64,000 nucleotides of DNA, from assembly GCA_010015585.1 (NCBI GenBank), contig ML975155.1; one strand, written 5' to 3'. How positions within the stretch are numbered: the first letter of the stretch is position 1; every line of letters starts with the position of its first letter. The translations under genes and the position numbers were made by a program. The DNA is from Eremomyces bilateralis CBS 781.70. Taxonomy: Eukaryota. The notes under the pieces are model-generated. The model ran no database searches, was not told where the DNA came from, and was given only the letters and a program-made list of their open reading frames with translations. Shown piece by piece: positions 13,800 to 49,400 of this stretch.

Positions 13800-15014
13800 A
13801 TGAGTTCTAGAAAAACCACGCCACCCCCGCCATCTAGGCCAGGCGTCATGCCCACTGGGCCAGTGACACCGGAGGCGGTACGACGTATGGTGAGTAAGTG
13901 CCGAGCGGGATCGATCATTTTGAACACGATCCTAACGCCGATGATTTAGGAGGAAGCGCGGCTCAAGGCAAAAGCCCGCCGCGTCGAACATGATGCAGCA
14001 ACCGGTCTCTCCGGCCCACCAACCGCCGCCGGCCAGAAGCGGTCCTACGCATCCATGGCCACCAGCTCACGACCATCGGTCCCAGGGAGTGCCCCGACGA
14101 CCGCCCCAGGCGGCATCCGACCTGCCCCCAAGGACCCTCACCTCCATTCGTCCAAGAAATTCCTAGCGCAGAACTACATCGAGTACGACTTCTCGAAGAT
14201 GTCCGACTCGCGCGGCGGGTTCCTGTCTGCACAAGACGACCCGCACAACCGGGCGATGCAGCACCCGACTAACGAACCGGAACGGCCGGCGCACATGACC
14301 GAGGCGGAGTGGGAGCGGCATCGGCTGTTGCAGAGCCTCCGGAAGAACCGGGCGGGCCCGTTCGAGCCGGGGATCAGCGTCCTAGACCGGGGGACGGAGC
14401 ATAAGAAATGTCAGGAGTGTGAGAGTTTGGAACTGGATTGGCAACTGGACGACGTGTTTGGGGTCAAGGTTTGCAAGGCGTGCAAAGAGAAGCTTGGGGA
14501 CAAGTATAGCCTCCTGACGAAGACGGAGTGTAGGGAGGACTATCTGCTTACGGACGAGGAACTCCGCGACGAGAACCTGTTGCCGAGATTGGAACGGCCA
14601 AACCCCCATATGCCACATTGGAAACCCATGATGCTATTTCTGCGGTTACAGGTCGAGGAGTATGCGTTTGGACCGAAGCGATGGGGGAGTCAGGAGGGGC
14701 TGGACCAGGAGTGGGAACGACGAGAGGCGGACAAGAAGGTGCGCAAGGACAAGAAGTTCAGAGAGAAACTCGACGATTTGAAGAAGAAGACGCGAGTCGA
14801 GGCGTATCGACGGGGCAAGGCCGCGGAGATGGCGGCAAGGAAGCGTGGCGACGATGATGTCCAGGTCAGGGCGGGAGAGTTTGGCCAAAGGGTAATCCGG
14901 AGGGGCGAGAAGCACGAGCATGAATGGGGGAGGCCGATAACAGACCCGGGGACGGGGTCGGTGAAGAAACGGTGTGTCGAATGCGGCATGGAGGTTGAGG
15001 AATTGGAGCTATGA
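13800..15014 (+). CDS. RAD14: DNA repair protein Rad14/XPA, 2 exons (13800-13889, 13950-15014), ~384 aa
   Basis: YIEYDFSKMSDSRGGFL, C4 zinc finger CQEC...CKAC, KYSLLTKTECREDYLLTDEEL, NPH...WKPMMLFLRLQVEEYA...WGS, C-terminal HEHEWG...CVECG; intron GTGAGT..CTAAC..TAG. Confidence 0.97.
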
Positions 15015-15084
15015 TTGTCAATGGTCATCGGACATGAATCGCATTACTGATATGACGGACACGAGGACGAATGAACGAAAACAA

Positions 15085-15486
15085 TTAAATTATGAACCAT
15101 TCTCTATCAAGTACCCTACGCCCTATTGCTAATAGGAAGAGTGTTTGTCCGAACCAGTACAAAACGAAAATGGAGACCTTTCCCACTGCCCCCCAAAAGT
15201 CCAGGTGGAGGAGTGTGTGGACCCATCCGACGACGAGATCGCGAGAAAGCTTCAGGAAGAAGGTAAGCAGAAAAAATAGGCCTCGAAGCAAGAAGCACAA
15301 GAAAAGAAAAGAAAAGACATAGTAGACCCCATCCCAAACCAAGCCCAAAACCGACCAACCTCGTTCTTCAACATGCGCTCGGGGTGCATCGGGACAATTT
15401 GGCGCAGCTGAATCCGGAGGCTCATGCATGTCAGAGTGATAGCCAACATCAAGCATCGCGTCAATCAATCTGAAATGGTCCATCAT
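15085..15486 (-). CDS. Putative 133-aa two-TM ORF whose ATG overlaps the stop of the upstream gene (ATGA)
   Basis: Open frame with two hydrophobic stretches; could be a T-rich 3'UTR read by chance. Confidence 0.3.
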   Translation of the reverse strand: MMDHFRLIDAMLDVGYHSDMHEPPDSAAPNCPDAPRAHVEERGWSVLGLVWDGVYYVFSFLFLCFLLRGLFFLLTFFLKLSRDLVVGWVHTLLHLDFWGAVGKVSIFVLYWFGQTLFLLAIGRRVLDREWFII

Positions 15487-16828
15487 GCGTATCGGTAAGG
15501 CGTGGCGCCTTTGTAGGGTGTCATCTTGATCTGAATCGGGGTGCAGCGGCCCATCCTCTTCAGGTAGGCCTTCTCGACCTCATCGAGGGGAAGCTTGTAG
15601 TCCGACTCACGCTTGGCCGGCTTATTGAGCTCCTTGACACGATCGGCGCCGCCCATTGAGTCGAAGACGGACCGGCTGTAGATCTGCCATGCACAAGCTT
15701 CATCGCGACCAGGTTGCGCACCCTGACTGCAAGTCGAGCAGGCCAGGAAGTTCACGTTGTCGCCGATGGCCATGTGACTTTCGGGTTGGCGAACTGAGGC
15801 ACCGACGACGGAGCTTCTTCCGATGTCAATGGGCTTCGCTGTGGATGAGAGGTCAACCTTGCCGGAGGGGAGGTTGTACGAGAGGGCGCCGTCCCTGCGC
15901 ATGAAGTAGAGCTGCGGATGGTCGGCATCGGAGTTGGCCTGTAAAAGTCAAGTCAGCGCAAGGAACCGGGTGAAAGCGATGTCAACGTCGACGTACCATC
16001 TCAAATCCAGGGAAAAGCACAGTGTTCAGCTCACGACGACACTTCCCATGCACACGCAGGTTCTTCTGCAGCGCGTTGTAGAACACCTCCTCAGCAGTTC
16101 GGGGGACTGCTTGCTTGCATAAGCACTCAGTCTCGCCACGGGCCTTCTTCTCGGTTCCGAAGAAGATGGGTTCATGCGTCCTTCCAAGGCGAACCATTGC
16201 CGGCTGGGCCAGGTGTGTCTGGTTGGCGAGGTCTCGCTCGATCTCCTCCGCCTCACGCTTGCCATGGTGGTCGCAGTTGCAATCCCCGCCATGGTGGTCA
16301 TCGCCGTGGTCATTGTCGTGGTGGATCTTCTCCCAGAAGACACAATCATCGCCACCGCCGCATGCATCATGTTTGGCTTTCTGGTACGTCTCGCACACCT
16401 TGCCATTGTCCTTATCCGTGTCCTTGCAGCTACCATCGCAACACTTGTCAAGGTGCTTGCTGTGCTCTGGATATGCCTGCAAGCATTCCTTCACCGGACG
16501 ATCGCCGAAGCACTGGTAGAGCTCCTTGTAGATAATGTGGCAGTTTTGGTCCTTGCATTGGAGTTTGAAGGGGTCATCGCTATCTGAGCTGGATGAAGAA
16601 TCGCAGTGATGGCAGTGCTTGCTGCTCTTGCTGCTCTTGCTGCTCTTGCTCTTGCTGTTCTTACTTTTCTTGCCGCTCTTGCCCTTCTTTCCAGGCAGGG
16701 AAAACCCGCGTGTCTCGAGACTTCGATGATGCTGATGCTGATTGCACTCGCATGGCTGGTTCTGTTTGCAGTTCACATTGCAGTTGGCCATATAATTTTT
16801 ATAGTAAGACTCGTCGTCGGAGCTGGAT

Positions 16829-16860
<32 letters not shown>

Positions 16861-17958
16861 GCAGTGTTTACACCCCCGTTCGTCAAGACTTCGCTTGTCA
16901 CCGTGATGGCCGGAGTGGTCGGAGCTGGACGAAGATTGGTGGGAGTGGTGGGCACTGTATTCGCAAGGCTTGCCCTCCTCGCAATGGTAAGGAAGGACAG
17001 GTTCCCAGTAAGAGATAATGCAGTCACACTGCCTACCCTTGTCGCATTCGCAATGAATGGGCTTCTCCTCGCAGTGACATTGCTTGCCCGGGTCGCAGTG
17101 GCAAGGCAGGCCAAAGTCCTTCGGTGGAAGGACTAGGACATTGCAGTTACCTCCATGGCAAGGATCCTGATCCAAGACCGTGACTTTGAAGTCGCAATGG
17201 GTGTCTCCGTTGCACGTGGAATGGAAGTATTTGTCCTCGCAATGGCATGGATGCGTCCCATCGCATTTGCAAGGGACTTCGAATTTGCCGGGGTCTTCGA
17301 TATGGAGATGGTAATGACAGGTCTTACCTTTCTCGCATTTGAACTGGGGGTCGACATTGGAGTACCCGTCCGAGCTGCTGGCGGAGGACCACCACGAATG
17401 CTCGAGTTCGTGGGACCACCACGAATTCTCGTGTTCGCCTCTCTCTTCGCTATCCGCTAGCGTCTCGGCCTCACGCTTCCAGTGTGGAGAGCAGACCTGG
17501 CAAGGCGGGCCGTCACGGACCCAGAAATTGCCATTGCAAGCTTGAATGGCCGTCTTGTCCAAATGAAAGCCGGGGGAGTCAACGGAGAGAGTGAACTTCG
17601 CTTTTGGACGCTTAAGCGGTTCCAGTCCCCCGTGTCCATCACATCTGTTGTTCGAGGTCAGAACTAACGTTGCTTTCGTTTGGGATCGAAGTGCACTCAC
17701 GAGAATCTATCATCATAGTAGCAGGATCTCCCACATACTCTGGTCACCTTGCCATTGATTTTGGGACAGAGAGTCTTATCGTCGAAGCAAGTGTACTGAT
17801 GAAGTGTTAGCTGACGTCGAAAAGGCCATGCACGGCATACTGACCTTATCCTCATTATAGGGTCCGTCACCACAGTACTTCACTACCGAGCCGGACGATG
17901 CAGATATGCTCGACGCCAGACACAGTGCGACAAGTGCCACGCCACCAAGAAGCGGCAT
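15483..17958 (-). CDS. Secreted ~770-aa protein: signal peptide + CBM52 (Carb_bind) + split PhiA/IgE-binding-like domain with a large Cys/His-rich insertion punctuated by Kex2 sites; 4 exons (17958-17845, 17795-17701, 17644-15997, 15938-15483)
   Basis: Signal MPLLGGVALVALCLASSISA; spliced CGDGPYNEDKYTCFDDKTLCPKINGKVTRVCGRSCYYDDRFSC matches the CBM52 Cys pattern; FTLSVDSP...IQACNGNFWV and QLYFMRRDGALSY...FLAC...WQIYS...CTPIQI...YKG...YRY match the two halves of the fungal IgE-binding/PhiA-type wall domain; three frame-consistent GT-AG introns. Confidence 0.85.
16617..16861. repeat. Coding microsatellites: (CTTGCTGCT)n-like run encoding SSK repeats and (GAA)n encoding poly-Ser
   Basis: Directly visible at ~16617-16660 and ~16827-16861. 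Confidence 0.8.
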
Positions 17959-18855
17959 CCTGACCACCTGAGAACCAGTCCGTAGACCAAAGCGGAGGTG
18001 GCAAGCCAAACAAGGGAGAAATGAGATAGGTGGTTGGGATGGACTAACGAAGTGACAAAAGAGTCAAGACAGCAGCAATTAAAGAAGATCTATATTTGCA
18101 TAGAGTATGTGATGCTGATGGCAATATGGAAAGTGAAGATTCCGAGATGGTAGTTTAGAAAGGATCTTGGAAATGGAGTTTTAAGACCTGGTATATGAAT
18201 AGTAAACATGCTTAAGAGGAAGGGGGTGCCATCTTCAGTATGAAGAGACAATAACGGTAGGAGGAGTTCTCTATCCCCGGCAGCGGCCATGGGAGTCGAA
18301 TGGAAGCTGCAATTGCCGTCGGGTATAATCCTTCTATCGCTGGCTTGGTGCCGATTTTTGTCCGAACATGACTACGTGCAAAGAGAGATTGAGGGATTTA
18401 ACCATAAGAACGTTGACAATTGGGTATCTTGAGAACTAACGTAAAGAAAGGCCATAGATGACTTTAACATTTGCGTCAATGTATGCCATATGACAATGCA
18501 ACATGAAGATGATGCTTTTGTAAAACCTGCGCCTTCTGCACCAGCTTGTGCTAGATGGAAAGCGCAACAATTAAAAGGTGTTCCTGCGGACAACAGACCG
18601 AGAAAATGGGTGGAACAGAAAGTAACTCCGGCTCCGTCCAGCATAACCCAGAAATTGCCACGGAACTGGCTAGACATAATGAGATGGTGCGACCAACTGG
18701 GCAGAAGCTTGAACAGATTTTGGAGGCGCAATACCTTCGATGCTCTATCGAGGTACTATGGTTCGAAGCACGCTTGGAAACACTGGAATGGTCGAAATAA
18801 GACAGCTGCTTGCTTCGCAAACCATATATCGGCCGATCAAACTGCGACTTAGAGT

Positions 18856-19584
18856 TCAAGCACCGTCGGGCACGACATCCAGCCAAGCCCACGTCACCCC
18901 AACTCTTCCGTAGTCCCTTGGAGCTAGCTCATCAAAGATTGCCGGGCTAACATCTATATCCGTCGGCTGGCACCCGGTGCATCTATCCACCACCGTCAGA
19001 TCCACGCTCCGGTCCTCTCCGGTCGCCTCGTTGTGCCGTCTCGCGCGGATCTTCTTCCCACATAGTGGATTCAGGTTCGGGTTCGAACCCGTCGACACAG
19101 CATCGTATAGGAGATGCGACACCGCAACGATGGGGTCGTTGTCAGTCGAGTCGATGCCGCACGAGCCGAGTCCGGGGTTGTAGTATGTGAGGTCGCCGGT
19201 ATGTGCTTCGGCGGAGGTGGGGAGCGGGAGGTTTTGTTTGCTGCCTTTGCCGGAGAGGCCGATTGAGAGGCCTAGGATGAGTGCGAGCAGGCTGAGGAAG
19301 ATGGCGACGAGGATAATGAGGAAAGTTCGGCGGCGCAATCCGAGGTATTGGCGGTTCGGGGGGACGATGCGGTCGAGTCGCGTCCGGAGAGTGGGGAGGA
19401 TGGCAGGAGTTGAGAGTTTCGATATATGAGAAAGCGCCGAACGTCGATGGCTATCCGTAGCGGGAGTTTCCCACTCAATTGCTATTATCGCATGACCTGG
19501 CTTGTCGTCGACGGTGACTGTCGATCCTTCTGTGGTGGAATGCGACAGTTCCGACTTGATCTGGATCTCTTTATCTTTCTCCAT
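18856..19584 (-). CDS. Membrane-anchored expansin-like / RlpA double-psi beta-barrel protein (Asp f 7/loosenin-like), 242 aa
   Basis: TM helix FLIILVAIFLSLLALILGLSIGL; GDLTYYNPGLGSCG, IVAVS, NPNLNPLCGKKI, TVVDRCTGC...DIDVSP..F, GRVGVTW. Confidence 0.92.
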   Translation of the reverse strand: MEKDKEIQIKSELSHSTTEGSTVTVDDKPGHAIIAIEWETPATDSHRRSALSHISKLSTPAILPTLRTRLDRIVPPNRQYLGLRRRTFLIILVAIFLSLLALILGLSIGLSGKGSKQNLPLPTSAEAHTGDLTYYNPGLGSCGIDSTDNDPIVAVSHLLYDAVSTGSNPNLNPLCGKKIRARRHNEATGEDRSVDLTVVDRCTGCQPTDIDVSPAIFDELAPRDYGRVGVTWAWLDVVPDGA

Positions 19585-20320
19585 GACCTCAAATCAGCGC
19601 TCTCGGTTGCTATTGATCCAGTTCAGATCTCGACGTTGCTTTTATCGTGGCACTTGCTGTCCCTTTATGCATGTTTGAGTAGTAGTAACTGGGAGGATCT
19701 GCTCTACATTGTATGCAGCCAAGTCAGGGGCATGCAGGGTCATTGTTGACAGTTGAGTTTAATTGCGGCGGCTAAAGTGACGCGCCCGCCGCTAGAGGCG
19801 CGCCTAAATCCACGTCACATTCTTTTCTCCGGTCAAATTAAATGTTCTGGAGACATTGACGCGGGTTGCTTGCGAATATCTAGTTGATTCTTATGAGTAT
19901 CTCCTCGAAAGAAGAGGTATGGCGGGACAAGGTCCAACTAGCTGAAACCGAACTGCCCCTGTGGCGATATCGCTCAGCCCTACATGACCAGCTGATCGGA
20001 TGAAGGCTATGACCGCCACGTCTTCATACATCGTCAACACCCGACAATATCTACTGGTCATCTATCGCCGCCTGCTATCATTCTTCTCATCATTTTATTG
20101 TACCATCTAAAACCGGATTATGTCTTGTATCAATTATATTTACTGGGCTAAAGGCTGTGGTTCTACTTCTTTAGCTCGAAGCTCAACGATCGCCACCTCT
20201 AGAACGACGAGCCATTGTGATCTGCCGACGTGAAGGGCGGTGCCATAAGGCAGTGCTACCAACCCCCGGAGCCTTGCGATCTCGACAGCATTGCAGCCTG
20301 TGCTGCAGTTAACCGCCGTC

Positions 20321-22537
20321 ATGAACTCGGTCATCCCAAATCTGCCTCTCCCCAAGGCACCCTGGAGAGCAAACTCTTCATCGTCGAAGGAGTCACTGGT
20401 ATCCCATTCCGTGGATAACGTTCGCGCCGGTGAGGCTGAGCAAGCAAGCGAACTTGAAATAGAGCTTGATCCTCCTAACTTGCGAGACTTAAACACATCT
20501 CTTCAATTACTATCCGAAGTGTTTCCCGAGATCCAACCCGAAGTCCTACGTGAAATGCTGTCCTCGTTCAGCGAAGAAAGCCGGGTCCAGGTGGTGACGG
20601 AGAATCTTCTCAAGAATCCCTCGAAATGGGTCCGAGGACGCGTTCGAGCTTATCACGAAAGTGAGCCAAAGCATGACGCAGGGAAGGATGGACGTGCAAC
20701 GAATTCCGGTCTTCCACCTCCGTCCGGAACCTCACATCCTGATCCCGCGCCTCTTGCCCGCGAAGAGCAGTTTAGAAGCCCCATGTACTGCGGAGCAGTG
20801 AGGGAGGTATTCTACTTCGAATTCAAAGGGTTGTCACGGAGTACCATCCGAGCCATTCTAGCAGAGAACAATTACTCCTATGGTGCCTCCCGCCCCGTCC
20901 TTCTTGCTTTGGTTTCGAAATCATGGCGGTTCTCCCTGACATCGTTTTTCTTTCGTCGCCGCATCCCCACTACCGATCCCACGTCTCATCCAGCTGTTTA
21001 TTGGCGGCCGAATCGCAAGACGGGCAAAAATGAACCTCATCTTCGGTACACGCCTTCAGCGGAGTTGAATATCGAGTTATGGGCAATGCTTATCGAGCCT
21101 TGGGTTGAGTCTGAAAAAGAAGCCCAGAAAAAGGGCGATCGAGCAGTCGCCGATCAACTGAATACCGCTCAAGCGGAAGATGTGGAAGAGCTGTATGACT
21201 GTGGTTGCTGCTTCTCCACCACAACTATGGAACATATGGCAGCATGCGACGACCAAGGCCACTTCGTTTGCTCCACCTGCGTCCGGGCTGCCGTCAACGA
21301 AGGCCTCTATGGACAGGCATGGGGGCGTAATGTCAATGTCGGCCGAGGAACTTTACGATGTTGTGCTCCAAACCTATCCATGAGCGGCGACGATTGTCAA
21401 GGCTGCATCCCTCTGGAACACGTCGAGAAAGCCCTCAGAGAAGACGATAATGGCGATGTCACGGCGCGCAAATTTTCAGACCGTTTCGCGAAAGAGTCGA
21501 TACAGAAAAGCAGACTTCCAGTCGCCCAATGTCCGTTCTGTTCGTATGTCGAAGCGGACCAACTGGGCATCTCCTTTACACTTTTACTGTTTCTCTTCTT
21601 CCCTTTCACCCGGCGATGGCATGCACTCAGTTATGATTGCAGTCCAGAAACCCTCGCAGAACTGCCGAAGCTACGATTCAAGAATCGAGAAACCTTCGTC
21701 GTAATCCTTCTCGCTCTCGTCAATCTCTGCTACCTCATCCCTGGGATCTTCCCCATTCTCAGTTTCTTTGCATTTATCACCATTACATCCGTATTATCCG
21801 TCATCGCCACTCCTCCTTCCCTCAGAACACAATTCACATCCTACCTCGGCTCCATGCCGCGCCAACTCTCCTCCTCCCTCCACCGTCCTCTCCGTCGCAA
21901 GATGGCCCCCCGCCTCCTCTGCCGCAACCCCTCCTGCCTCCGCCCCTCCTGCCTCAACTGCCACGCCTCCTGGCCACCCAACACCGCGCACGTCTGCTTC
22001 ACCTCGGCACGCGACTCGCTCCGCCTGGCGCTCGAATCCGCCGCCACCTCCGCGATCAAGCGCACGTGCCCGTCCTGCAGCCTCTCCTTCCTCAAGGACT
22101 CCGGGTGCAACAAGCTGGTGTGTCCGTGCGGCTACGTCATGTGCTACGTGTGCCGGCGGCAGATCACCACGGCGGAGGGGTATTCGCATTTCTGCCAGCA
22201 TTTCCGTGAGCGGCCCGGGGATGCGTGCAGGGATGGGGAGGATGGCGGGTTGTGTGGGAAGTGCGACCTGTATCGCGTGGAGGGAGAGGAGGAGACGATT
22301 CGGCGGGCGGTAAGGAGGGCGGAGGAGGAGTGGTGGGAGCAGGAAGGGAAGAAGATGGCGAGAGGGAGGGAGATGGAGGGGTTGAGAAGGGGCTTGGATA
22401 TGAACATCGAGGGACATGAGATCCGGGTCGGTGGGGTACAATCGCCAGGCGACCCAGGGACGAGACTACGAAAGTGGTGGAGAAAAATGAGTGTTGACTA
22501 CGTCGTGGAAGTGTTTTGGGATACTTTCGTGGTCTGA
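20321..22537 (+). CDS. RBR (RING-IBR-RING) E3 ubiquitin ligase, RNF216/TRIAD3-like, with N-terminal CUE-like domain and hydrophobic insertion in the IBR
   Basis: LSEVFPEIQPEVLREML (CUE-like); RING1 CGCCF...CDDQGHFVCSTC...C...C; IBR CPFC...CRNPSC..C..C...H.C; RING2 CPSC..FLKDSGCNKLVCPCGYVMCYVCR...YSHFCQHF. Confidence 0.9.
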   Translation: MNSVIPNLPLPKAPWRANSSSSKESLVSHSVDNVRAGEAEQASELEIELDPPNLRDLNTSLQLLSEVFPEIQPEVLREMLSSFSEESRVQVVTENLLKNPSKWVRGRVRAYHESEPKHDAGKDGRATNSGLPPPSGTSHPDPAPLAREEQFRSPMYCGAVREVFYFEFKGLSRSTIRAILAENNYSYGASRPVLLALVSKSWRFSLTSFFFRRRIPTTDPTSHPAVYWRPNRKTGKNEPHLRYTPSAELNIELWAMLIEPWVESEKEAQKKGDRAVADQLNTAQAEDVEELYDCGCCFSTTTMEHMAACDDQGHFVCSTCVRAAVNEGLYGQAWGRNVNVGRGTLRCCAPNLSMSGDDCQGCIPLEHVEKALREDDNGDVTARKFSDRFAKESIQKSRLPVAQCPFCSYVEADQLGISFTLLLFLFFPFTRRWHALSYDCSPETLAELPKLRFKNRETFVVILLALVNLCYLIPGIFPILSFFAFITITSVLSVIATPPSLRTQFTSYLGSMPRQLSSSLHRPLRRKMAPRLLCRNPSCLRPSCLNCHASWPPNTAHVCFTSARDSLRLALESAATSAIKRTCPSCSLSFLKDSGCNKLVCPCGYVMCYVCRRQITTAEGYSHFCQHFRERPGDACRDGEDGGLCGKCDLYRVEGEEETIRRAVRRAEEEWWEQEGKKMARGREMEGLRRGLDMNIEGHEIRVGGVQSPGDPGTRLRKWWRKMSVDYVVEVFWDTFVV

Positions 22538-23924: not shown

Positions 23925-26411
23925 CTAGAAGAAGAGAGGCCCTTTTCCTCCTCTTCTTCTTTTCTCTAGCAATTCGATAACCCTGAAAGCCTGATCTCTG
24001 ACAAGTAGCAGCTTAACGATGGCCTCGTGACCATTCTCAGCCGCCCACGACAGCGGCGTCCGGTTGTCTTCAAGTGCAATATTTGCGTTGATAATGTTTT
24101 TGCTCAGTAATCGAAGCAACAACTTGATCAGAGATCGCTCTTGCTTCGGGGCGCATATGATATGCTGCATGCAGAACGACTTCGCATAATCATAAAAGTA
24201 AAAGTGATCCAGTGAACGCGTGTAACAGCGACTGTTTGTATCCATAGTGGTCTTACCCATATCAAAGTTAGGCATTTTCCTAGACTTCAATAATTTCAAC
24301 GCAATGGTTCGGCCCATGCTGGAGCCTATTGCTTCTCGAACGATCTCTGACGGCGCTGATCCCATTTTCATGCGAGGAGCCACAGCAGTCGACAACTGGG
24401 TTCCAAAAACCCCATAGTTGAGATAGGTAACGATGGTATCGGCGACGTTTTTGTGTGCGAGGTCTATTATGAATTCTCCATCGTTCGGGTCTCTAAATCC
24501 AGTGAGGAGGAACTGCTTAAAACTGTGATGTACTAGCCGAGCAGTCTTCTCTTCTTCGTCAACGACAACAAGGCCTCCACAACTAGCCAATGTTGATATA
24601 ATGCCGTTAATAAGACTTGAAAGTCTCCAGTCCGTATTTCCTAGAACCACGCTGAAGGCTTCTCGAAGTTCTTCCGTTGTTAAGGGACGAAATGCCCCCA
24701 CCACGGGGTCTAAAACCTGCCCTGCTCTCCGGATCTCTGAAGGATGCGAGTATACGTTTCCGGAAGTTCTTTCGGAAGATGATCTAGTGCCTGGAGGATT
24801 TCGTCGTCTGTCCTCATCGTGCAAAGAGACTGAAGTTGAAGAGCGACCCATAAAAACATGCCTTGCGATCCCTTCATGAGTTTCCGCTGTATGTCCGAAA
24901 TGATCACAGGGTTCCTATTTTCAGTTTCTCAGAGGAGACGAGACTCTCTAACTCTCCATCAATATACGCCTCAAGGTCGGGATTGTCGTCAGGCATGAAA
25001 ACTGTCCTGGAAGCAACGAGTCCTTCAAGACTCAAACTTTGGTTCTTAGCCGGATCGAGGCGGACTGAAACGCAAAGGTGAAGAGTGACGGTTCCCTGGA
25101 GCTTCTGGAGTTGCTGAACTAATAGATCTCCAATCGTAAAGTCGCATTCATCAATCCCGTCAAGTACAACGTATGCGGGGGTATTTTCTGGGAAGACGCG
25201 CTGAAGAAGACGGCATACATCTTCGACATCCAGATGTGAAGTGGTCTCGTCAGGAAGTTCTTTTGATAACACCAAGTCCGGGATTGAGATAAGTAATTGT
25301 CGAGCAAGAGATCCAAAGATTGTCCGAGCCTTGAGACTTTCGGGGATGTCATGCCGACAAAAGAAGTAAGCAACGGGAGTGGGTTTTCCTTCAACCCAGG
25401 TACTGAGGTCGTGCACGATATTGCACAGAAGAACGGACTTTCCAGATCCCAGCTTGCCCATATATATCAGGGTCGAAGAACTCGCACGGCTTCTCCAACC
25501 CAGGTATACAGTGCATCGGGAATACAGAGAGCAGTGTCCGAGTTTTCGAGTTTGCTTCCAAGTCGTCTAAAAATCATATGTGGAGCAGAGATCTAGAACC
25601 CGTAACCTGGTCTGCAGGTTCCGCTGATGCGACACAAACTCTGGCCTTTAGTCACAAGTGCTTTGATTCCAGTAATTTCGTGGCCATCGTCATGGACCTT
25701 CTTGGCCATAAGAAGGTTTACCTCTTCTTTGATTGTATTGGCCCAGCTCTCTAGGTTAGACTGGTCCGTCCTTACATCCGAGTCACTGAGGGCGGATACG
25801 AATTTGGTGATGGCTGATTTCTGTGCAAACTTCCATATTTGATGGCAGAAGCCGACAACCACAATATAATACTCGGCAAGACTGGCCTGCAACCGTTTCG
25901 ATTGCGGATAGAGAAGGGCCATAATTTGATAGCGGGGAGCGGAGCGACCAATATCCATAAAAAGGCTCGATAGCTTGTCCAGGTATGATGAGTATGTGGC
26001 CATTGACTGCAACAGCATTAATATCACATCTTCTCCAATAGAGCGTCACCCGGAATACCGTACTCACGAGCAGAGACATTCGCACGAGCATCCAGACGCC
26101 ACAATAAAACCAGGTTCTGACTACCGCCAAGAATTACATCTCCAAGCGCTGCGAATTGCTGAACGGCGTGAAGGAAACTTGTCAGCCGCGGACCGAAACA
26201 TCGTCTACCAGCAACAAGTCCAGAAGTATTGTCGATCCCGGAAGTAAGCCTCATGATATCGCTCTGATCGGGAGGTGAGAAATGCAGCTGTAAGTTTTGA
26301 ATTCGGAGTCCAGCTTTCTGCTCGCTAGAGAGGTCCGTTTCGAGCTGCGACACGGCTTGGGCGAGGCGGATCCCGGGTTTCAACCGCGAAGCGTTCGCTA
26401 GCAGCGGACAT
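23925..26411 (-). pseudogene. NACHT-ankyrin NLR-like pseudogene, truncated after the first ankyrin repeat
   Basis: N-terminal LKPGIRLAQAVSQLE...RCFGPRLTSFLHAVQQFAALGDV..GGSQN; P-loop GKLGSGKS; Walker B YVVLDGIDE; GMFLWVALQ...LPKELPETYTRIL; RPLTTEELREA; ankyrin RTPLSWAAENGHEAIVKLLL. Domains are spread over several frames, with about five frameshifts and an in-frame TAG near 25568. Confidence 0.9.
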
Positions 26412-26690: not shown

Positions 26691-27220
26691 ATGAGGTCGT
26701 TTGGGTAAGAAATTAGTGGTAATCGACAGAGAAATCGCGAATTAAGCGAACGTCAAAGAGCTGCGATTTTACAGGCTGTTGCGACGATAGAACTGAGGCG
26801 GAGGTTGCAGAGGAGCATAATGTCGTTATTCGCACCGTATACAATACCATCAATCGATGGAACCACCACCACGTCACTGCATCCTTACCCCGTAAGGGGA
26901 CCCCCCGAAAGCTATCGCGGTCTGACGAACGGCATATCGTCAAAATTGCACGCAGATTCCCAAAGATAGAGTATACAGAGCTCCTCGAAAGCGTCGAATA
27001 CCTCCGGATCTCAAAGAGGACTATCTACCGAACCCTTAAGAAATATCACCTTACGAAGTGGCGAGCGAAGGAGAGGCCGCATCTTAGGCCTCATCACGTC
27101 AAAGACCGGCTCCAATTCGCCCGCGAATTCGTGAAATTCGACTTCTCAAGGACCCACTCTACAGACGAGTGCTCTTATGAGAAAGGGGCCAGCGGAAAAC
27201 AGGTTTGGGTATGGCGCCAA
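26691..27220 (+). mobile_element. Tc1/mariner (impala-like) transposase relic, N-terminal half only
   Basis: Not in the ORF track. Reads EISGNRQRNRELSERQRAAI / EVAEEHNVVIRTVYNTINRW...SLPRKGTPRKLSRSDERHIVKIARRFPKIEY...ISKRTIYRTLKKYHLTKWRAKERPHLRPHHVKDRLQFAREF...STDECSYEKGASGKQVWVWR: bipartite HTH plus first catalytic Asp. Early TAA and a frameshift near 26785. Confidence 0.9.
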
Positions 27221-27571
27221 ACTCTACTATGTACTACCGTACCGCGTGCCCGCGGTATTCCCGAAAAGTTGTAAAGGAAGCGATTGGCCAGAGCGTAATA
27301 TCAGTTCTATGCAGCTACGCCCGCATTATTTCCTTAATCCTAATCCATAATTCTCCAACTTACCTTTCCTGATGCTTGACTAGTTAGCCAAACCTAACCA
27401 AACTACCCCGACGACCATCTATAATCTTGCTCGTTAAAATCCGCAGTAATTCCATAAGTATCAGGCTGATTCTGCCTTTCCCCGCACATCGTCAGATATC
27501 CTCGCTAAAATCACTGGTTCTTACAGCCTCGGCCAAGAAGGTATATCATGTATTCTGTAGTAACGAATGGT

Positions 27572-29994: not shown

Positions 29995-30512
29995 ATGGGA
30001 AGATGCGCGCGCGTGTGAGCGGGAGGTGTCTTTGGTACTGGATGTGCACGATGTACACTACTGGGTTTATTTGAGGAGTTTGGGCATCAGCGACGGCGTT
30101 ATACCAGCCTCAGGCGATGGCGGGTGGGACGGCATCCCCGTGAACCCAGGTTGGGACTCTTCACTGCATCGAGTACACAGGGACGAGCATAAGAGTGAAG
30201 CGTTTAGAATATATCTGCTGAGCTAATCTATATCTCTCCGAATCATACCCTCCGAAAGCTGACTGTGTTCCATATTTCAATATCTTGTCCGTTCTGATCA
30301 GTCAACTTTGCCTTGCATTCTGTCATCGGTTCCATCCTCATACATCATTACCCATCAAGTCCACTGCCTATTCCGTGCTTCCTAACATCTGTTATTGTTG
30401 GATGCTCACATATAACCTGTCTCATCGCTATCATATTTCTGTAAGCTCGTCATTCTCGAAGTTGTACCATGGTCCGCATTGCCATGCAGTCAGCATTGAC
30501 GACCGAAACCGC

Positions 30513-33500
30513 TCAATGACTGCTCTGCGAGAACCTCTGGGCATACTTTTGCGCTACTCAATGTTAGCAAACCCATCCATGCAATTCCTTGCCACTTACT
30601 CTTCGTCACCCTCGAAGTTCGTTTCTGTGATCCCTGCCGAGCCGGCTGCTTCCCCGTGCGAGCACTGACAAAGTCCCCTGTAAACTCAACCGACCTAGAG
30701 ACACTCTCGCTCTTCATCGCGGTCTTGTGGCGCGTGTGTCCGGAGATCGGACTCTGTCCTGTCGGGACGATCTCATCATGCGCCGTGGGTTCGGCGATTT
30801 GGACACGTTTCTTTGCTGGCGGCCCAACGGCAAGCGGGGCGCCTCGCTTCGTGCCCTGTTGAATTGGCTTTACAAATTGTCGCGGACCGGGATTGAACTT
30901 CGCCTGAGTCTCCGGTCGTCGTGAGGCCACGCCGGACAATGGGCTGGAGACTGAACTAGGGGATCCGGAGAGCTGCCTCACCTTTGCTCTGGTTATGTTA
31001 CCGTCTCCAAGCTGCGTTGGAGCATCTCGATGTTCTTCGGAAGGAGTAGCTGCAATCATGTCCGCACCCTGGACGAAGGAGAGTTGTTTGGCCATCTTGG
31101 TCCTGCCTTGGGGTACAAAACCCTTCGTCACTGGACTCTCTGGGACTCTGGGTGGTTGGTATGTGTCCGGTGGGGTCAGTCCAGTCTCGATAGGACTCTT
31201 TGTTGGCCGTACGTGTGCATGTGAACCTTGGGAGTATCGCTCTTGAGGATCCAGAGACACCTGGCTCAGATTCACGTACTGGTCCATCCTGCCGAGCTGT
31301 TGTCGAGGGGCACCACTCTCAGCCAAACCATCGTTTCCCATCTGGGTGATCAGATCCTCAACGAATTGGTTCTCCTTGTCGGACAGCTGAGAGTTTCGAG
31401 GTGGAGACAGCGGGTTTAACCCCGCAAAGGCTTGAGCCGGGCGCTCACCCGTTGCTTTCACAGCTTCTTGAGCCGGCTGTTGGGCGGGGGTGAAATATTG
31501 CGTCTCATAGACGATGTCATTTCCGTACATGTTCACAGCCAAAGCGTCAGGCCCGTCGATACGCTCATGGGCATCCACAAACACGTTAGGGTCCCTCAGT
31601 TGAGACTGGGCGTCCACAAACATGCTAGGGCCGCTCAGGTGAGACTGGGCATCTTTGCTTGCGGAATCTTTGCTCCGTTGGGAGTCATTCTGGACGTCTT
31701 GGCTTCCAAGATCGCTCTGCATCTGGTGACCTGCCACTTCGATTCTCTTCAACGGCTGACGTTCACCAGGATGGTGTGCGGATGGTCTCAAACCTTCACT
31801 GCCGCTCTCGAATCCGGGTGTCTCGGTGATAGAACGGATGAACGATTGGGATTCTTCTAGAGGACCGCTATCACGACGATGTGATTCAAGCAAGGCTTGT
31901 CGGCCTCTCTTCCCAAGCCGATGGAGCTTCTCAAGCTCGGAATTTGCATTGCTTGTCGGATGGTTCTGATGTCCAAACGGCGCTCTTTTACTTTCTAGCA
32001 TTTTTGGATGCACGTCGGCAGCTTCTCCCTCTGGCCTCCACTTACCGCTCGGCGGCATGAACGACATGATATCTTTGATGACTCCCTCCTGTGCTTGCAC
32101 GGTGCTTTGTAGTTCTTGATTCCGATTCTCGACGAACTTTTGGTTGTGTGCATTCTTTTCCTTCTCAACCTTCATTGCTTCCTGGATCTCTTCGAGATTA
32201 GCAGACTTGGCCTTCTCATCCTGAAGTTGTTGCCGAAGCAGTTTATTCTCGTCCCTGGACCCGTCCAGCTCGGCTTGGATCCTTCCGGAATCGTCATCGT
32301 GAGTTTGCTTGAGCTGGTGTATCTGGTTCTCATGCGATGCTTTCGTCTCCGCGAGAAGCCTGTTAGCGTCCTGGTTGAGTTGGTTTTTTGATGCTTCGAG
32401 TTGCTGTGTCATCTCGGTTGCTTTCTTTGCATCGTCTTGCTGTGCTTCGACTAACAAAGATTCCAAATCCCGTGATTTACTGCCCAAGTCACTGACTTGT
32501 CTGAGTAGGAGAGCATTGGCCTTTCGGATCTCCTCATTAGCCGTATTGGCTTTCTCCAACTCTTTCTCAGTGCTCTCTCGAGCATTCCTGGTCTCACCAA
32601 CGAGCTGTTGCAAAATTGCGATCTTGTCGAAGGCGTCTCGATGCCCTAGAGCCTCTTGTTGACTGTTCTTAAGATCCGTTTCGAGTTGCTGAATCCGGTC
32701 ACGCAGCTCATTCTCTGTCATAGCTCCTGCTGTCTCGGATGCCTCCAACTTCGTGATCTTGGACTGGAATGCCTTCGTCGCTTCTTTCATAGCCGCATTC
32801 TGTGAGCGTAGCTCAATGGTCTCCTCGTGACTACGTTGTGTCTCAAGCATTCTCGTCTTGAGATCCATAATACTCTTCTGAGCAGACTGGTCCAGGCAAC
32901 CGGGGCAAGGTTTTCTATCCTCGAGCGTAGAATGAAGCTCTTGGGACAACACTTTGATGCTGAAAATTGTGAGATGGTATCCATGCTTCCATCACGACCT
33001 TTTCTTACCTCTGTGATATGCAGTTTGCATTCTCCTCTAGCTTCGCTGCATTGATGGAAGGCTGATCTCGCAGGCCATCAACAGCCTTCAAAACCGTTTC
33101 AAGTTTGCTCACAACTTCTGGAACGTCGGGAAGGGTGCGAATGTGCTGCTTGACTGCCTGCTCTAAGGCCTCTTTCATTGTCCCCGAGATCTGGTCCATC
33201 TTTTGCCACATTTCTTCTGGCTTCACCTGAGTTTCTCCCACCTGCTTGGCAAGTTCGGCGTGCATATCGTGAACCTTTCCCAAGGCACTGTATGCCCGAT
33301 TCATCGCGATGAGAAAAGTGTCGGCTCTCGCTTTCCATACAGCAATATCTGATTGGACGCCGGCAAGAGACTGATCGGCTTGAGCTTTGACATTGGCCAA
33401 CTCAGTGTTCAAAGATTCGACACCGCGAATTGAATCTTCGAGCTTCTGCTTAGTCTGCTGCAGCTCAGAATTCAGTGTCTCTTTTCGGTCTTCGAGGTGC

Positions 33501-34993
33501 TTTTCTCTGATACTAGAGCTTGTCAACTGGGATTCAAGGTCTTTGATCAAGCCTGTGCTCTCAGTAACCTTCGACTCGGCCTTAACCAAGTGTTGGTCCT
33601 TCTCCTGATGCCTGCTTCCGAGTTCATCGTGGCGCTGCAAGAGAGACTGATGACGCTCCTTCAAGGTGGCGATTTCCTGCACAAGGTTTAACTTCTCTTC
33701 CGTAATCCTCGCGATCGTTGTTTGGAATTCCTTTCGTTCATGCTCTAAAGCGTTTGACTTTTTCTTCTCATCCTGATGAATGATCCAGCCCAGAAAGTTC
33801 AGTGTGTCAGTCGTTGTACTGTGACCACTGATCTTGGGAACTGTCCGCTCTGGGGTTGGCGTGCCTGCCCGTGAGTGATTACCGTTACGGGACTTGACTA
33901 CACCAACAGGATGTGCACCTTCGAGAATCAGGTTGGGAAGTTTTCCGCAGCGCACTGGTGTTGATTCGGATGGTGGAGGTTGCGTAGAGATCCGAGGGCC
34001 CGGACACTGGCCTTGTCCTGGCTGTTCTGGCATTCTCTGTTGCCTTGTCTGTGTTGAGTCCGCACTTATCTCAATGTTGCTATTGTGAGGCTGGGGCTTC
34101 GGTTTTTCGCTATGATCGACGACATTGAGACGCCCTTGCCGAGAGAATAGTCGGTTGACTTCCATTGTAGTTCCCTTCCCTACTCGTGCTTTGTTCTCGG
34201 AAGATGCGCCCTTTGCCGACCTACTCGCTTGTTCCTCCGATGATGGCCTTCTTGCTGAAGAAATTGGCCTTTCAGCGATAGATCCTGGAGCCATGTGGGG
34301 CTCAGTCTGCATGAAAGTTTCACCCCCCTGGCATAGGCGTTCGTCACGCCCGTTTGGACGCTTGATCTTCTTTCCCTCACAGTCAATGTCACTCTTTTGT
34401 CCCTGTTTCATGGCTTCCCTGTCAGACTGAGCAGGAGCGGAAGTGATCCAGGGGTTGAGATATTGTGGCTGAAAATTGTTGCGGTCGTTGAGCTTCGGCG
34501 TGTTTGGTCTAGAATGAGCCTGATCCTGAGGCTTAACTTCGCTTCTCGCCTCGCTCACTGGCTGCGGGGTTCTATCCATTCCCTCGTCTTGGGCTTCAAC
34601 GCCAATGGCCGAGCCTGGTATCGCTAGACCAGATGGTACTGTCCATTGTAAGCGGGAGGTCAACCATATGGATCAATGATGACACTAACCAGGAAGACAT
34701 GGATCATTTGTCGGGTTCGTAGTGAGTCGAACCGGACGGATTGAAATCCTACTTGGCGGATCGACTCGCTTGGTGAACTTGAACTCGGGGATAGCTAGGC
34801 CTGCTGAAATAGGGCGAACAGTAAGATGATGAGGAACCGCCGGTGGTGGCATGTCTGAGCTAGTGTCCTTCCCCTGAGGCAAACCGGAGGCTATGGTAGA
34901 CTTCTCAAAGTTCGCTGGAGCTGCCTTCGGAGCCAACCCGGACTGCGGCAAATCGGACCCAAAGGGAAGAATGTCTGGTCCACGGTTCTCCAT
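30513..34993 (-). CDS. Large coiled-coil protein (~1444 aa), 4 exons (34993-34690, 34638-33009, 32959-30600, 30553-30513); further upstream exons possible
   Basis: Three frame-consistent GT-AG introns join the 108, 552 and 820 aa ORFs; long central heptad-rich E/K/Q/L region flanked by disordered S/P/Q-rich termini. Confidence 0.8.
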
Positions 34994-46406: not shown

Positions 46407-49400
46407 ATGTCTCGGTCCCAGCATGACCAGTTCATCGACGATGAAGAGGAGGAGACGTGTCCGCTCTGCGTCGAGGAATTCGATCTTTCCGACAAGAACT
46501 TCAAACCGTGCCCATGCGGCTATCAGGTACGTCGGCGCCCGAAATTTCGGAAAATTGGGGATTCTGACGATCCGTGATATAGGTTTGCCAGTTCTGCTAC
46601 AACAATATCAAAAATGCTGTGAACGGGCTGTGTCCGGCATGTCGACGACCCTATGACGACAACAGAATCGAATGGAAGTCTATCAGTCCTGAAGAGTACG
46701 TATTACTTAGATTTTCTAGGTCTAATGGTCTTACTGATCATTTTCTAGGCTAGCAAGCTACAAGGCCGACCAAGCTCAACAAGCCAAGCGCAAGGCAGCC
46801 GCCCGACAAAAGGAAGCGCAGAAGAAAGAAGCAGAGTCGCTCAGTCGTAAACACCTTGCCGGCCTTCGCGTGGTCCAGAAGAACCTGGTCTACGTCACGG
46901 GCATGACGCCAAACACACGCGAAGCACGTTTACTGGACATCTTGCGAAGTAACGATTACTTTGGGCAGTACGGCGAAATCGTCAAAATTGTGGTCAGCAA
47001 ACCCAAGGAGACAATCGGTCCACATGCCAATTCCGTTGGCGTTTACGTTACCTACAAGCGGAAGGAAGATGCGGCCAAATGCATCGCAAGTGTCAATGGC
47101 TCACGGAACGGTGACAGGGTGCTGAAGTAAGTTTGGTTGATGTGGCGATTGCTTCCATCCGCTTACATTTTCTCAGAGCACAGTACGGAACGACAAAGTA
47201 CTGCTCCGCATATCTGCGCAACGAAACCTGCTCGAACCGAAATTGCATGTTTTTGCATGAGGCGGGCGACGAAAACGAAACCTTCTCAAGAAAGGATATG
47301 TCCTCCATGAACGCAGCCCACAACCTCCCCGAACAAGAAGACGCTCCCGACCATCCGTCCGTTCCTCAACCGGTTCAGCCACACATTGAACATCGCGAAT
47401 ACCTCATGGGTCATGGGGAAGGCACTTCGGATGGCCCTGCACTTCCATCCACGGCGAGCTGGGCGGACAAGAATCAACAAGGTCGACGTGCCAGCCGCAC
47501 CACGACGAGCAGTGGTGTCAGTCCAATGGCAACGGCCTCGGTCCCTGCGTCAAAGCCTACCGAGACAGAACCTGCTCCATCAGAGTCGCATGAGGGACGC
47601 TCAAACTCTCCAGAAACCGTCGACACCACTACGCATCCTCCACCAAAAGCAAAGCGTCTGGGTAAGACGCCCCAACAACTCGAGAGGGCGGCATACATGA
47701 AGCTGGCGAAGAAAGTTTGCGATGACCTCCTGTTCCACTTCATGCCACCGCCTTACTATACTCAAGAAGATGTGGAGGTCCTTAAATGCATGCCACCCAT
47801 GTGGGATTCGATGGCCGGTATGCGACGCCGTGTTCTGAAAGAGAAGCTGATGCAGGAACGGGCCGAACGCGACCGACAGCAAACCGAAACAGACGCCCAG
47901 CAGCCGCGGATCGACCGTATTCCCGAGGAGTCAGCAGAAGCCGGAAGCTTACAGCTTGGAGGAGAACCTGAAGATCGATCGGACCTTGCAAATCAAGGGG
48001 CCGTTCAACCTCCACAAGGCCCACTCGAGTCTATTGGACTCGGTTCCGGAGCATTTAACGATGATTTCGGGAATCTGAACCTGGGACGGGGACTTACACC
48101 TCAACAACAGCAGGAATTGCTCTTGCAGCAGTTCAAGTCCGGTTCACCCCAACCTCCCGGTTTCCAAACTTCTGGCCAGACGAATCTACATGCGGGTACC
48201 ATGCCAGGTCATTCCCGAACCACCTCTCGATTCTCCTTTGCGAACGATACCTCCACTGCCACGACATCGGTTAAGCCTGTTGCCAATCCCAAGCTGATGA
48301 GCCAACAAGCCAGTATGATGCCACAGGGAGGGCATTTCAACACCCTCTCTCAGCAACAACAACTTGGTGGACCGCAATTCTTCCCAACTACCCAAGGCCC
48401 TCCTCCGGGCTTGAAGGCTACAGGTACTCCTCCAGTCAGCGGCGGTGGAATGTTCGGCCAAGGTCACGGCTTCGCCAGTACCCTTGGAGGGTACGGCAGC
48501 AACATCAGCAGTCGAAACACGAATGATGAGATGATGCGCGAGCTACTTCGAAACCAACAGCGCGGCAACGCTGGTGGTAGCGGCATGCCGGATGCCGTAA
48601 AGCGTGAGTCTATGTTTCCATCATTCCTTCATCAACACCCACACCCACCGGCCTCAACCGCAACCCCTGTCCCCAATGCGCCTGGGCTCATCAGCCTTCC
48701 GTACGGATCGCAGCCGCCTGGTGCTGGTGGTAGCTTCCAGGAAGCCGTCGGTCCTCAGAAGAAGAGAAAGGGGAAAAAGCACAGGCATGCTAACACTTCC
48801 TCCTCTGGTGGGGGTGGTGGTGTAGTCGATGTTGCAGACCCAAGTATTTTGCAGGCGAGGCTCCACCACGGCGCGGCCGGCGGCGGCGCTGGCTCAGGCA
48901 GCATCCATACAGGACAGGGAGTTTACGGGCAAGGCTCAGGTGGGTTCCCCTCCATGTATAACGGTGCATATGGACGGTGGTAGTCCAATTTCAACAACGA
49001 TCTGGGTCTTGCGTTCATCATAAATACCCCTCTTTTCACTCTGGGAGGATGGGCACAACGTGTATCATGATTTTTTTTCCTTTTTTTCACCTTTTCCAAG
49101 GGAACGATGGTTCTCGCCATTTCCTTCGCTTAACTCATTTCCCCCTTCCTATGCACGCGGCGTCCAGGACGGGCTCGAGCGAAATCATCGGGCAACATTC
49201 AGGCAACATGCCGATTGTCGACGGGCAAAACCTATGGCGTTTGTTCACGGGAATACTTCTCACTTTTCTTTTTCAAAACGGACGATTCACGCGGGTTGCT
49301 AGGGATGGATTCCAGTCATGCACACGCACCCAGTTTCCGTCCTTCTGCTTCTGTCGACTGCAACCGCTGAGTGCTCACGGGCGGTGCATGTATCGCTATG

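Follow-up and report, generated by a model that had tools for sequence, protein, structure and literature searches.

What does a fungus make from a secreted wall-type protein whose body is interrupted by a long cassette of Cys/His-rich modules? This question is raised by a gene at positions 17958..15483, minus strand, in a 64,000-nucleotide (nt) stretch of DNA from Eremomyces bilateralis CBS 781.70 (GCA_010015585.1, contig ML975155.1), here called the window, which is the whole stretch that was analysed. We found that the gene is real, that the genome is of the filamentous ascomycete type, and that the encoded product is a secretory polyprotein of 770 amino acids (aa). Its cassette is bordered and divided by linkers that resemble kexin cleavage sites. 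The chances seem to us evenly balanced that the product is a kexin-processed secretory polyprotein, with a body split by the cassette, which is cut into several products.

Gene model and transcript contigs

Reading of the reverse strand and translation gave a four-exon gene with a coding sequence of 2313 nt. The parts of the gene are as follows.

17958, minus strand: start codon ATG
17958-17845, minus strand: exon 1
17796-17844, minus strand: intron 1, 49 nt, GT..AG
17795-17701, minus strand: exon 2
17645-17700, minus strand: intron 2, 56 nt, GT..AG
17644-15997, minus strand: exon 3
15939-15996, minus strand: intron 3, 58 nt, GT..AG, phase 0, skipped by a contig of run X3 (see below)
15938-15483, minus strand: exon 4 with the stop codon, aa 620-770, second part of the C-terminal body, 4 Cys
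15483-15485, minus strand: stop codon

All three introns contain CTAAC/CTGAC branch-point-like motifs, and short GT..AG introns with such motifs are the pattern of filamentous ascomycetes. Exon 3, the large exon, lies within a stop-free frame of 574 codons (1725 nt). The gene, and every motif that a preliminary description of this locus had quoted, were found upon translation at the places given there, on the minus strand.

That description had named an insert that is spliced out as grounds for giving up the precursor idea. Public run X3, the kind of which is only guessed to be RNA, contains 0.89 of the gene's sampled words. When two X3 contigs were compared with positions 15000-18500 we found exact joins across 15938-15996, 17645-17700 and 17796-17844, and the skipped stretches have CT..AC ends on the plus strand, hence GT..AG when read on the gene strand. 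In the DNA runs X1 and X2, which may be the source of this assembly, contigs read through the three intron stretches with no skipping. The X3 contigs retain the whole cassette except for a break at 16819-16869, a Ser-codon triplet repeat. Since only the three short introns are skipped in the X3 contigs while the cassette is kept, the idea of an insert removed by splicing fails, and this confirms the gene model. These contigs extend into neighbouring genes and show the joined form, neither a single transcript nor its level; the depths of the contigs with the spliced form are similar to those of the neighbours. A further run with the same species label, X4, had no match to the gene region at 85% likeness, which is no proof of absence.

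Contigs of both X2 and X3 end at the triplet repeat at 16819-16869, the length of which could differ between isolates.

The cassette consists of four linkers and three unlike modules

The cassette spans 415 aa (aa 126-540) between two bordering KREAE sites and is divided internally by KRSLDERG and HRSLETRG. The first border motif, KREAETLADSEERG, runs from 17478 (aa 126) and the last, KREAEEIERD, from 16260 (aa 532). Between them KRSLDERG runs from 16896 (aa 320) and RSLETRG from 16725 (aa 377). The linkers and modules are listed in the order of the protein.

17440..17478, minus strand: linker 1, KR-EAETLADSEE-R, aa 126-138
16897..17439, minus strand: module 1, aa 139-319, 181 aa, 20.5 kDa, pI 5.6, 20 Cys, 21 His
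16876..16896, minus strand: linker 2, KR-SLDE-R, aa 320-326, in which LDER fits LxxR
16729..16875, minus strand: module 2, aa 327-375, 49 aa, 5.4 kDa, 6 Cys, 14-Ser run, tail ...CECNQHQH
16708..16728, minus strand: linker 3, HR-SLET-R, aa 376-382, not dibasic, in which LETR fits LxxR
16261..16707, minus strand: module 3, aa 383-531, 149 aa, 16.5 kDa, 14 Cys, tail ...CNCDHHG
16234..16260, minus strand: linker 4, KR-EAEEIE-R, aa 532-540

One design is common to the four linkers: [K/H]R, a short acidic spacer and [E/T]R. Each of the three modules has a His-rich tail immediately before the basic pair (...HSGHHGD in module 1), the modules together hold 38 His, and CxC pairs were seen in them by eye. 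Module 1 carries a duplicated SWWS motif and seven C-x(4-7)-C units with a central Gly; the mean in shuffles was 1.3 and seven were reached in 0/20000 shuffles. Module 3 has a Lys/Ser-rich cationic start and a helical Cys-rich core at aa ~437-500. When the cassette was compared with itself by BLAST, no alignment off the diagonal appeared at E up to 10, so it holds no internal duplicates and the modules are unlike each other. The preliminary description had expected three or more distinct small peptides; to call the modules small peptides was an overstatement, since they range from 5.4 to 20.5 kDa and only one is peptide-sized.

Three tandem repeats lie in the DNA of the cassette.

17386-17437: 27-nt tandem duplication, 1.9 copies, 92% match, which encodes the doubled H-x-x-SWWS at the start of module 1
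16829-16860: GAA x10.7 tandem repeat, in module 2
16618-16682: 9-nt x7.6 tandem repeat, in module 3

With regard to metallothionein-like, EGF or CFEM-type domains, neither the module 1 core, nor the whole of module 1, nor the module 3 core had a Pfam match at E up to 10. Nothing of significance came from the PDB sequence searches (module 1 core best E 0.35, module 3 core E 0.94), and comparison of module 1 with the Atlas gave no usable match. The AlphaFold2 (AF2) single-sequence model of exon 3 has a mean predicted local distance difference test (pLDDT) score of 39.3, and only the helices of the module 3 core reach a block pLDDT of 63-79.

The placement of the linkers appears non-random

Shuffling of the mature protein gave at least two KRE[A/P] motifs in 4/20000 shuffles. 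Of the pattern [KH]R-x(3-11)-[ET]R-[GD], four linkers arose in 0/20000 shuffles, a figure that is generous because the pattern and the borders were defined post hoc, after the linkers had been seen. These counts support a placement of the linkers beyond chance. The depletion of Arg in the modules is a less biased signal than the linker pattern. Arg and Lys number 2 and 38 in the modules but 23 and 24 in the flanks (Fisher P 3.5e-6), and 8 of the 10 Arg in the cassette fall within the 37 linker residues. Since kexin requires Arg at P1, avoidance of Arg in exposed modules is what would be expected from selection against stray cuts.

In the available text of PMC8528282, the rules for kexin are Arg at P1, Lys at P2 (then Arg, Thr, Pro, Glu, Ile), Leu at P4 and the form LxxR, with Asp at P3 unfavourable for Kex2. 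The cassette has KR at aa 126, 320 and 532 and LxxR at aa 323-326 and 379-382. At the second Arg of the linkers, LDER and LETR fit LxxR while EER and IER carry Glu at P2. The second Arg thus fits the kexin rules, and therefore each linker could be cut twice with loss of the acidic spacer. KR followed by EA is described as the Kex2/Ste13 signature in the portion of PMC6339444 at hand, in agreement with the way the bordering sites had been read in the preliminary description. The low pLDDT of the exon 3 model suggests that the Kex2 sites are exposed.

Besides the post hoc definition of the linker pattern, several points weigh against processing. Asp is present at P3 of two sites, GDKR and LDER. 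Linker 3 is HR and has no dibasic pair, so that of the two internal dividers noted beforehand KRSLDERG is indeed KR but the other is not dibasic. Five more [KR]R pairs occur in the flanks (aa 81, 606, 633, 728 and 746), hence a dibasic pair alone marks no cut. Tandem repeats abound in the DNA of the cassette, the odd composition of which, including the low Arg, could therefore be due in part to slippage and not to selection. For independent folding units the argument is Cys parity (see below), since AF2 confidence is low for nearly everything. None of the searches made found a homologue in which the sites could be seen to be conserved. Cleavage itself is predicted from the sequence, and X3, which supports the gene model, is RNA by guess.

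The flanks of the cassette

On the N-terminal side the cassette is preceded by a secretory-type N-terminus, a carbohydrate-binding module and a short body fragment, and the C-terminal body follows it.

17899..17958, minus strand: signal-peptide-like N-terminus with the start codon, aa 1 to ~20, judged by eye from the translation
17626..17880, minus strand: CBM52 (Carb_bind) module, aa ~27-76, 6 Cys, over exons 1-3, with predicted ends in exons 1 and 3
17479..17604, minus strand: N-terminal body fragment, aa 84-125 (42 aa), 3 Cys, ending ...CSPHW directly before the first KR
15997..16233, minus strand: first part of the C-terminal body, aa 541-619 (79 residues), 3 Cys

By eye, the N-terminus shows a hydrophobic core of 13 residues and then a stretch of Ser/Ala, with an ambiguous cleavage point between aa 15 and 22. 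The translation of exon 2, scanned alone, matched Pfam PF10645 Carb_bind (E 3.9e-10, 40.2 bits, profile 12-40 of 49) above the gathering cut-off of 25 bits, and the first 11 and last 9 profile positions are expected in exons 1 and 3. By this profile the module is assigned to CBM52. Both the secretory-type N-terminus and the CBM52 module of the preliminary description were therefore borne out. The available text of bioRxiv 10.1101/2025.07.03.663104 reports that the Magnaporthe oryzae protein GBP (MGG_05232), which likewise has a secretion signal and then CBM52 (PF10645), binds beta-1,3-glucan and is located in the wall; by analogy we may fairly infer a wall location for the CBM52-bearing part of the protein here. 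GBP differs in that it has homologues in 113 species and, in the same text, no reported internal cassette, and the two proteins are likened by description and not by sequence.

The C-terminal body after the cassette has 230 residues in total (aa 541-770). Its first part contains the protein's only N-glycosylation sequon, N544. Exon 4 has no hydrophobic C-terminus, hence no glycosylphosphatidylinositol-type signal was seen, and its AF2 model, made without an alignment, has a mean pLDDT of 40.1 and mostly strands in the first 88 residues. All parts of the protein besides exon 2 were without a Pfam family, whether scanned whole or, at E up to 10, in six sub-pieces; this includes the N-terminal body fragment (aa 84-125), exon 4 and the first part of the C-terminal body, the last of which also had no PDB sequence match.

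The flanks had been described as two halves of a PhiA/IgE-binding-like domain. No search supported this: there was no Pfam match, neither phmmer with exon 3 nor the word-indexed searches with exon 4 gave any, and the libraries contain no PhiA model. Some short motifs follow one another in the flanks in an order that presumably resembles that of PhiA proteins, a lead unsupported by any search. Nor does the domain simply resume in the last exon as had been proposed, since 79 residues of exon 3 after the second KREAE precede that exon; even if the likeness to PhiA is real, these residues are extra. PhiA of Aspergillus nidulans and CfPhiA-1/-2 of Cladosporium are small secreted ascomycete wall proteins, and in the accessible part of the Cladosporium effector paper (bioRxiv 10.1101/127746) the PhiA proteins are named by homology and have no Pfam accession, unlike others listed. 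The gene here differs from them in that no search tied its flanks to any protein.

Searches for relatives

Exon 3 was compared exhaustively with 1,835,955,588 proteins using phmmer, with 0 matches at E <=0.001. A word-indexed search with the same exon scored 8000 candidates, none at E <=0.001, and those with exon 4 scored 271 candidates among longer proteins and 10 among proteins of similar length, none of them significant. Scans of metagenome contigs gave 174 and 17 pattern matches, none of which was confirmed by tblastn. No paralogue was found by tblastn of the protein against the window. For exon 4 the PDB sequence search returned, without significance, a copper chaperone for superoxide dismutase (E 0.27). 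In the Atlas the nearest to exon 4 were unnamed Ascomycota clusters at 0.92, where recognition is below the reliable level, and DUF7907/7908 at 0.81-0.84, which is a lead only. This looks like an orphan or very fast-evolving gene, which fits the slippage repeats of the cassette.

Proposed processing and its products

The N-terminal part has 9 Cys (6 in CBM52 and 3 after it), modules 1, 2 and 3 have 20, 6 and 14, and the C-terminal part has 7. Even counts in the modules and odd counts in the flanks would fit self-contained disulfides within the modules and one bond between the flanks. The chance of this parity pattern is ~1 in 32, and therefore it is only a hint.

If the protein is processed, a kexin of the Kex2/KexB type in the Golgi would cut the linkers after KR/HR and/or after the second Arg. 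The short acidic spacers would be lost, and Kex1-type trimming would yield modules that end in their His-rich tails. This would give an N-fragment of 11.6 kDa that carries CBM52, a C-fragment of 25.7 kDa and three soluble Cys/His-rich proteins of 20.5, 5.4 and 16.5 kDa. One disulfide could keep the flanks joined, giving a two-chain glucan-bound wall protein similar to the alpha and beta chains of killer toxins.

The freed modules would most plausibly bind metal ions via the CxC pairs and His tails, as suggested by these features and the 38 His; this is the weakest step of the proposal. Comparisons of profiles, structures and promoter motifs gave no support for metal binding, and the 900 nt upstream showed no copy of the zinc-response core, of either of two PacC motifs or of a TATA box. 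A cut after R138 would leave module 1 with the N-terminus G-E-H, an X-X-His arrangement that could be a putative copper/nickel site. We take this arrangement to be an amino-terminal copper- and nickel-binding (ATCUN) motif, as a candidate only. Taken in full, that one gene gives a disulfide-linked, CBM52-anchored two-chain wall protein together with a cut-out 'C-peptide' of three metal-binding, His-tailed proteins is a proposal that we consider unlikely to hold in every part. The functional steps beyond the gene model and CBM52 are all deduced from the sequence of a single orphan gene.

The known forms of fungal precursors cut by kexin are series of almost identical peptides, N-terminal pro-domains and killer toxins. 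In the open-access literature that we searched there was no description of a CBM52 protein whose body contains a cassette of unlike modules, and a polyprotein embedded in a domain in this way was not found described for fungi. If the proposal is true it would add a further form of precursor, in which a glucan-binding wall protein holds several unlike disulfide-rich, His-tailed proteins within its body and the same cuts release the modules and mature the wall protein. It would also provide a defined candidate for secreted metal-binding proteins in a fungus.

Comparison with known precursors

The closest layout is that of the killer preprotoxins. The K1 preprotoxin (delta-alpha-gamma-beta) is described in the available part of bioRxiv 10.1101/2024.10.11.617966 as having an internal gamma segment that is excised by Kex2 and disulfide-linked alpha and beta chains; in K1, and also in K28, a Kex2-bounded internal segment is removed and the flanks form the mature protein. 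In the protein here, the odd Cys counts of the flanks and the even counts of the modules would fit one such inter-flank bond. The differences are that no sequence similarity exists between the killer preprotoxins and this gene, that the excised part here would be ~400 aa with three modules, that the N-terminal flank has CBM52, and that this is a chromosomal gene with introns and not a double-stranded RNA satellite.

Ece1p, the candidalysin precursor of Candida albicans, has several KR sites that are cut by Kex2p, followed by Kex1p trimming, which gives non-identical products (PMC5784256, in the text available). The protein here is similar as one signal-peptide precursor for which non-identical products are predicted. 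Ece1p differs in that it has 271 aa, gives short peptides and lacks a glucan-binding module, Cys/His-rich modules and a split flanking domain. Given the killer preprotoxin layout and the products of Ece1p, as far as these two sources go, the statement of the preliminary description that this architecture was not known from any described family is too strong.

Kex2-processed repeat proteins (KEPs) such as Ustilago Rep1 and Hum3 are similar in their signal peptide, KR-delimited units and wall location, and in Hum3 a KR-punctuated array is joined to a folded wall domain, a hydrophobin (PMC4617103, from the part consulted). They differ in that the modules here are unlike each other and that the array lies inside the body of the protein rather than in front of it. 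Like a KEP, the protein has a signal peptide (by eye) and several KR/RR sites; near-identical repeated motifs between the sites were not found by self-BLAST, and the modules are of 181, 49 and 149 aa. Because the units between its sites are not repeats, this is not a KEP by the definition in the available text of PMC6339444.

Other explanations of the cassette

Could the cassette remain in place? The protein may be an unprocessed modular wall protein in which the cassette is an O-mannosylated Ser/Lys/His/Cys-rich stalk between the glucan anchor and the C-terminal domain, or a metal-binding loop, and the basic pairs are buried, glycan-shielded or tolerated. We regard this as somewhat doubtful. 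Long Ser runs are typical of wall-protein stalks, most of the cassette has low predicted order, its DNA repeats are of the slippage type, dibasic pairs occur in the flanks also, and Asp at P3 is unfavourable at two of the sites. However, KREAE is found twice, exactly at both borders of the cassette, near-duplicate dividers of the form [KH]RSL[DE][ET]RG are hard to obtain by chance, and Arg is avoided within the modules. Moreover, an exposed KR in a disordered secretory segment is a classic kexin substrate.

A quite unlikely explanation is that an orphan gene has acquired the cassette as a young low-complexity insertion, which evolves fast and grew by duplication and slippage without a product-specific function. 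The likeness of the linkers would then come from recent internal duplication of a linker-containing segment. The lack of a homologue in any collection searched, the tandem repeats of 3, 9 and 27 nt within the cassette and modules without a Pfam, PDB or Atlas match are all consistent with such an origin. However, the frame is open over 1725 nt, the spliced form is present in X3 at contig depths like those of the neighbours, and self-BLAST shows no duplicated segment around the linkers. Folded, disulfide-bonded units are also suggested by the parity of the Cys counts and by the ordered, helical core in module 3.

It is very improbable that the gene encodes the precursor of an antimicrobial or killer-type two-chain toxin, in which the flanks would be the alpha and beta chains of a toxin aimed at beta-glucan walls via CBM52 and the cassette would be a gamma-like pro-region or immunity part. 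The K1-like layout, with gamma excised at Kex2 sites and alpha and beta linked by disulfide, the odd Cys counts of both flanks and the wall-glucan-binding module point in this direction. Against it, no toxin was found to resemble the protein in sequence or fold, known gamma segments are much shorter than the cassette, which is further divided, and toxicity is a prediction only.

The proposal of a dikaritin-type RiPP precursor (for a peptide made on the ribosome and modified afterwards) with the SWWS duplicate as core peptides has a signal peptide, Kex2 sites and the duplicated HxxSWWS motif to its credit but is barely credible, as no basic pairs flank the duplicated motif, self-BLAST shows no repeated core between the KR sites, and the UstYa/DUF3328, tyrosinase and methyltransferase families are absent from the 31 open reading frames (ORFs) scanned for families out of the 86 of at least 130 aa in the window.

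Neighbouring loci in the window

We also rejected a RiPP cluster at this locus, there being no RiPP-type enzymes among the 31 scanned ORFs (of 86). Other ORFs of the window are listed here.

18859-19593, minus strand: ORF directly upstream of the cassette gene and on the same strand, with a weak match to DPBB_1 (expansin/RlpA-like double-psi beta-barrel)
13950-15011, plus strand: XPA/Rad14-type DNA-repair gene (XPA_C, E 2.4e-24), convergent on the 3' end of the cassette gene
20249-22534, plus strand: long open frame without a Pfam family
30493-32991, minus strand: long open frame without a Pfam family
33008-34672, minus strand: long open frame without a Pfam family
47115-48980, plus strand: long open frame without a Pfam family
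49615-51972, plus strand: long open frame without a Pfam family
23928-26045, minus strand, and 26723-27271, plus strand: three adjoining ORFs with pieces like those of NLR (nucleotide-binding and leucine-rich-repeat) proteins

The five long open frames are of 555-833 aa and lack a Pfam family at E <=1e-5. The DPBB_1 match of the upstream ORF (E 9.3e-6, 26.2 bits) is under the cut-off of 28.8 bits; this neighbouring ORF may encode another secreted protein that acts on the wall. One X3 contig spans the 3' ends of both the XPA/Rad14-type gene and the cassette gene, and therefore their transcripts may overlap or abut. The pieces in the three NLR-like ORFs are DUF7708, NPHP3_N/NACHT, GPIID_WHD and ankyrin, and these ORFs adjoin a helix-turn-helix fragment of a Tc1/mariner-type transposase.

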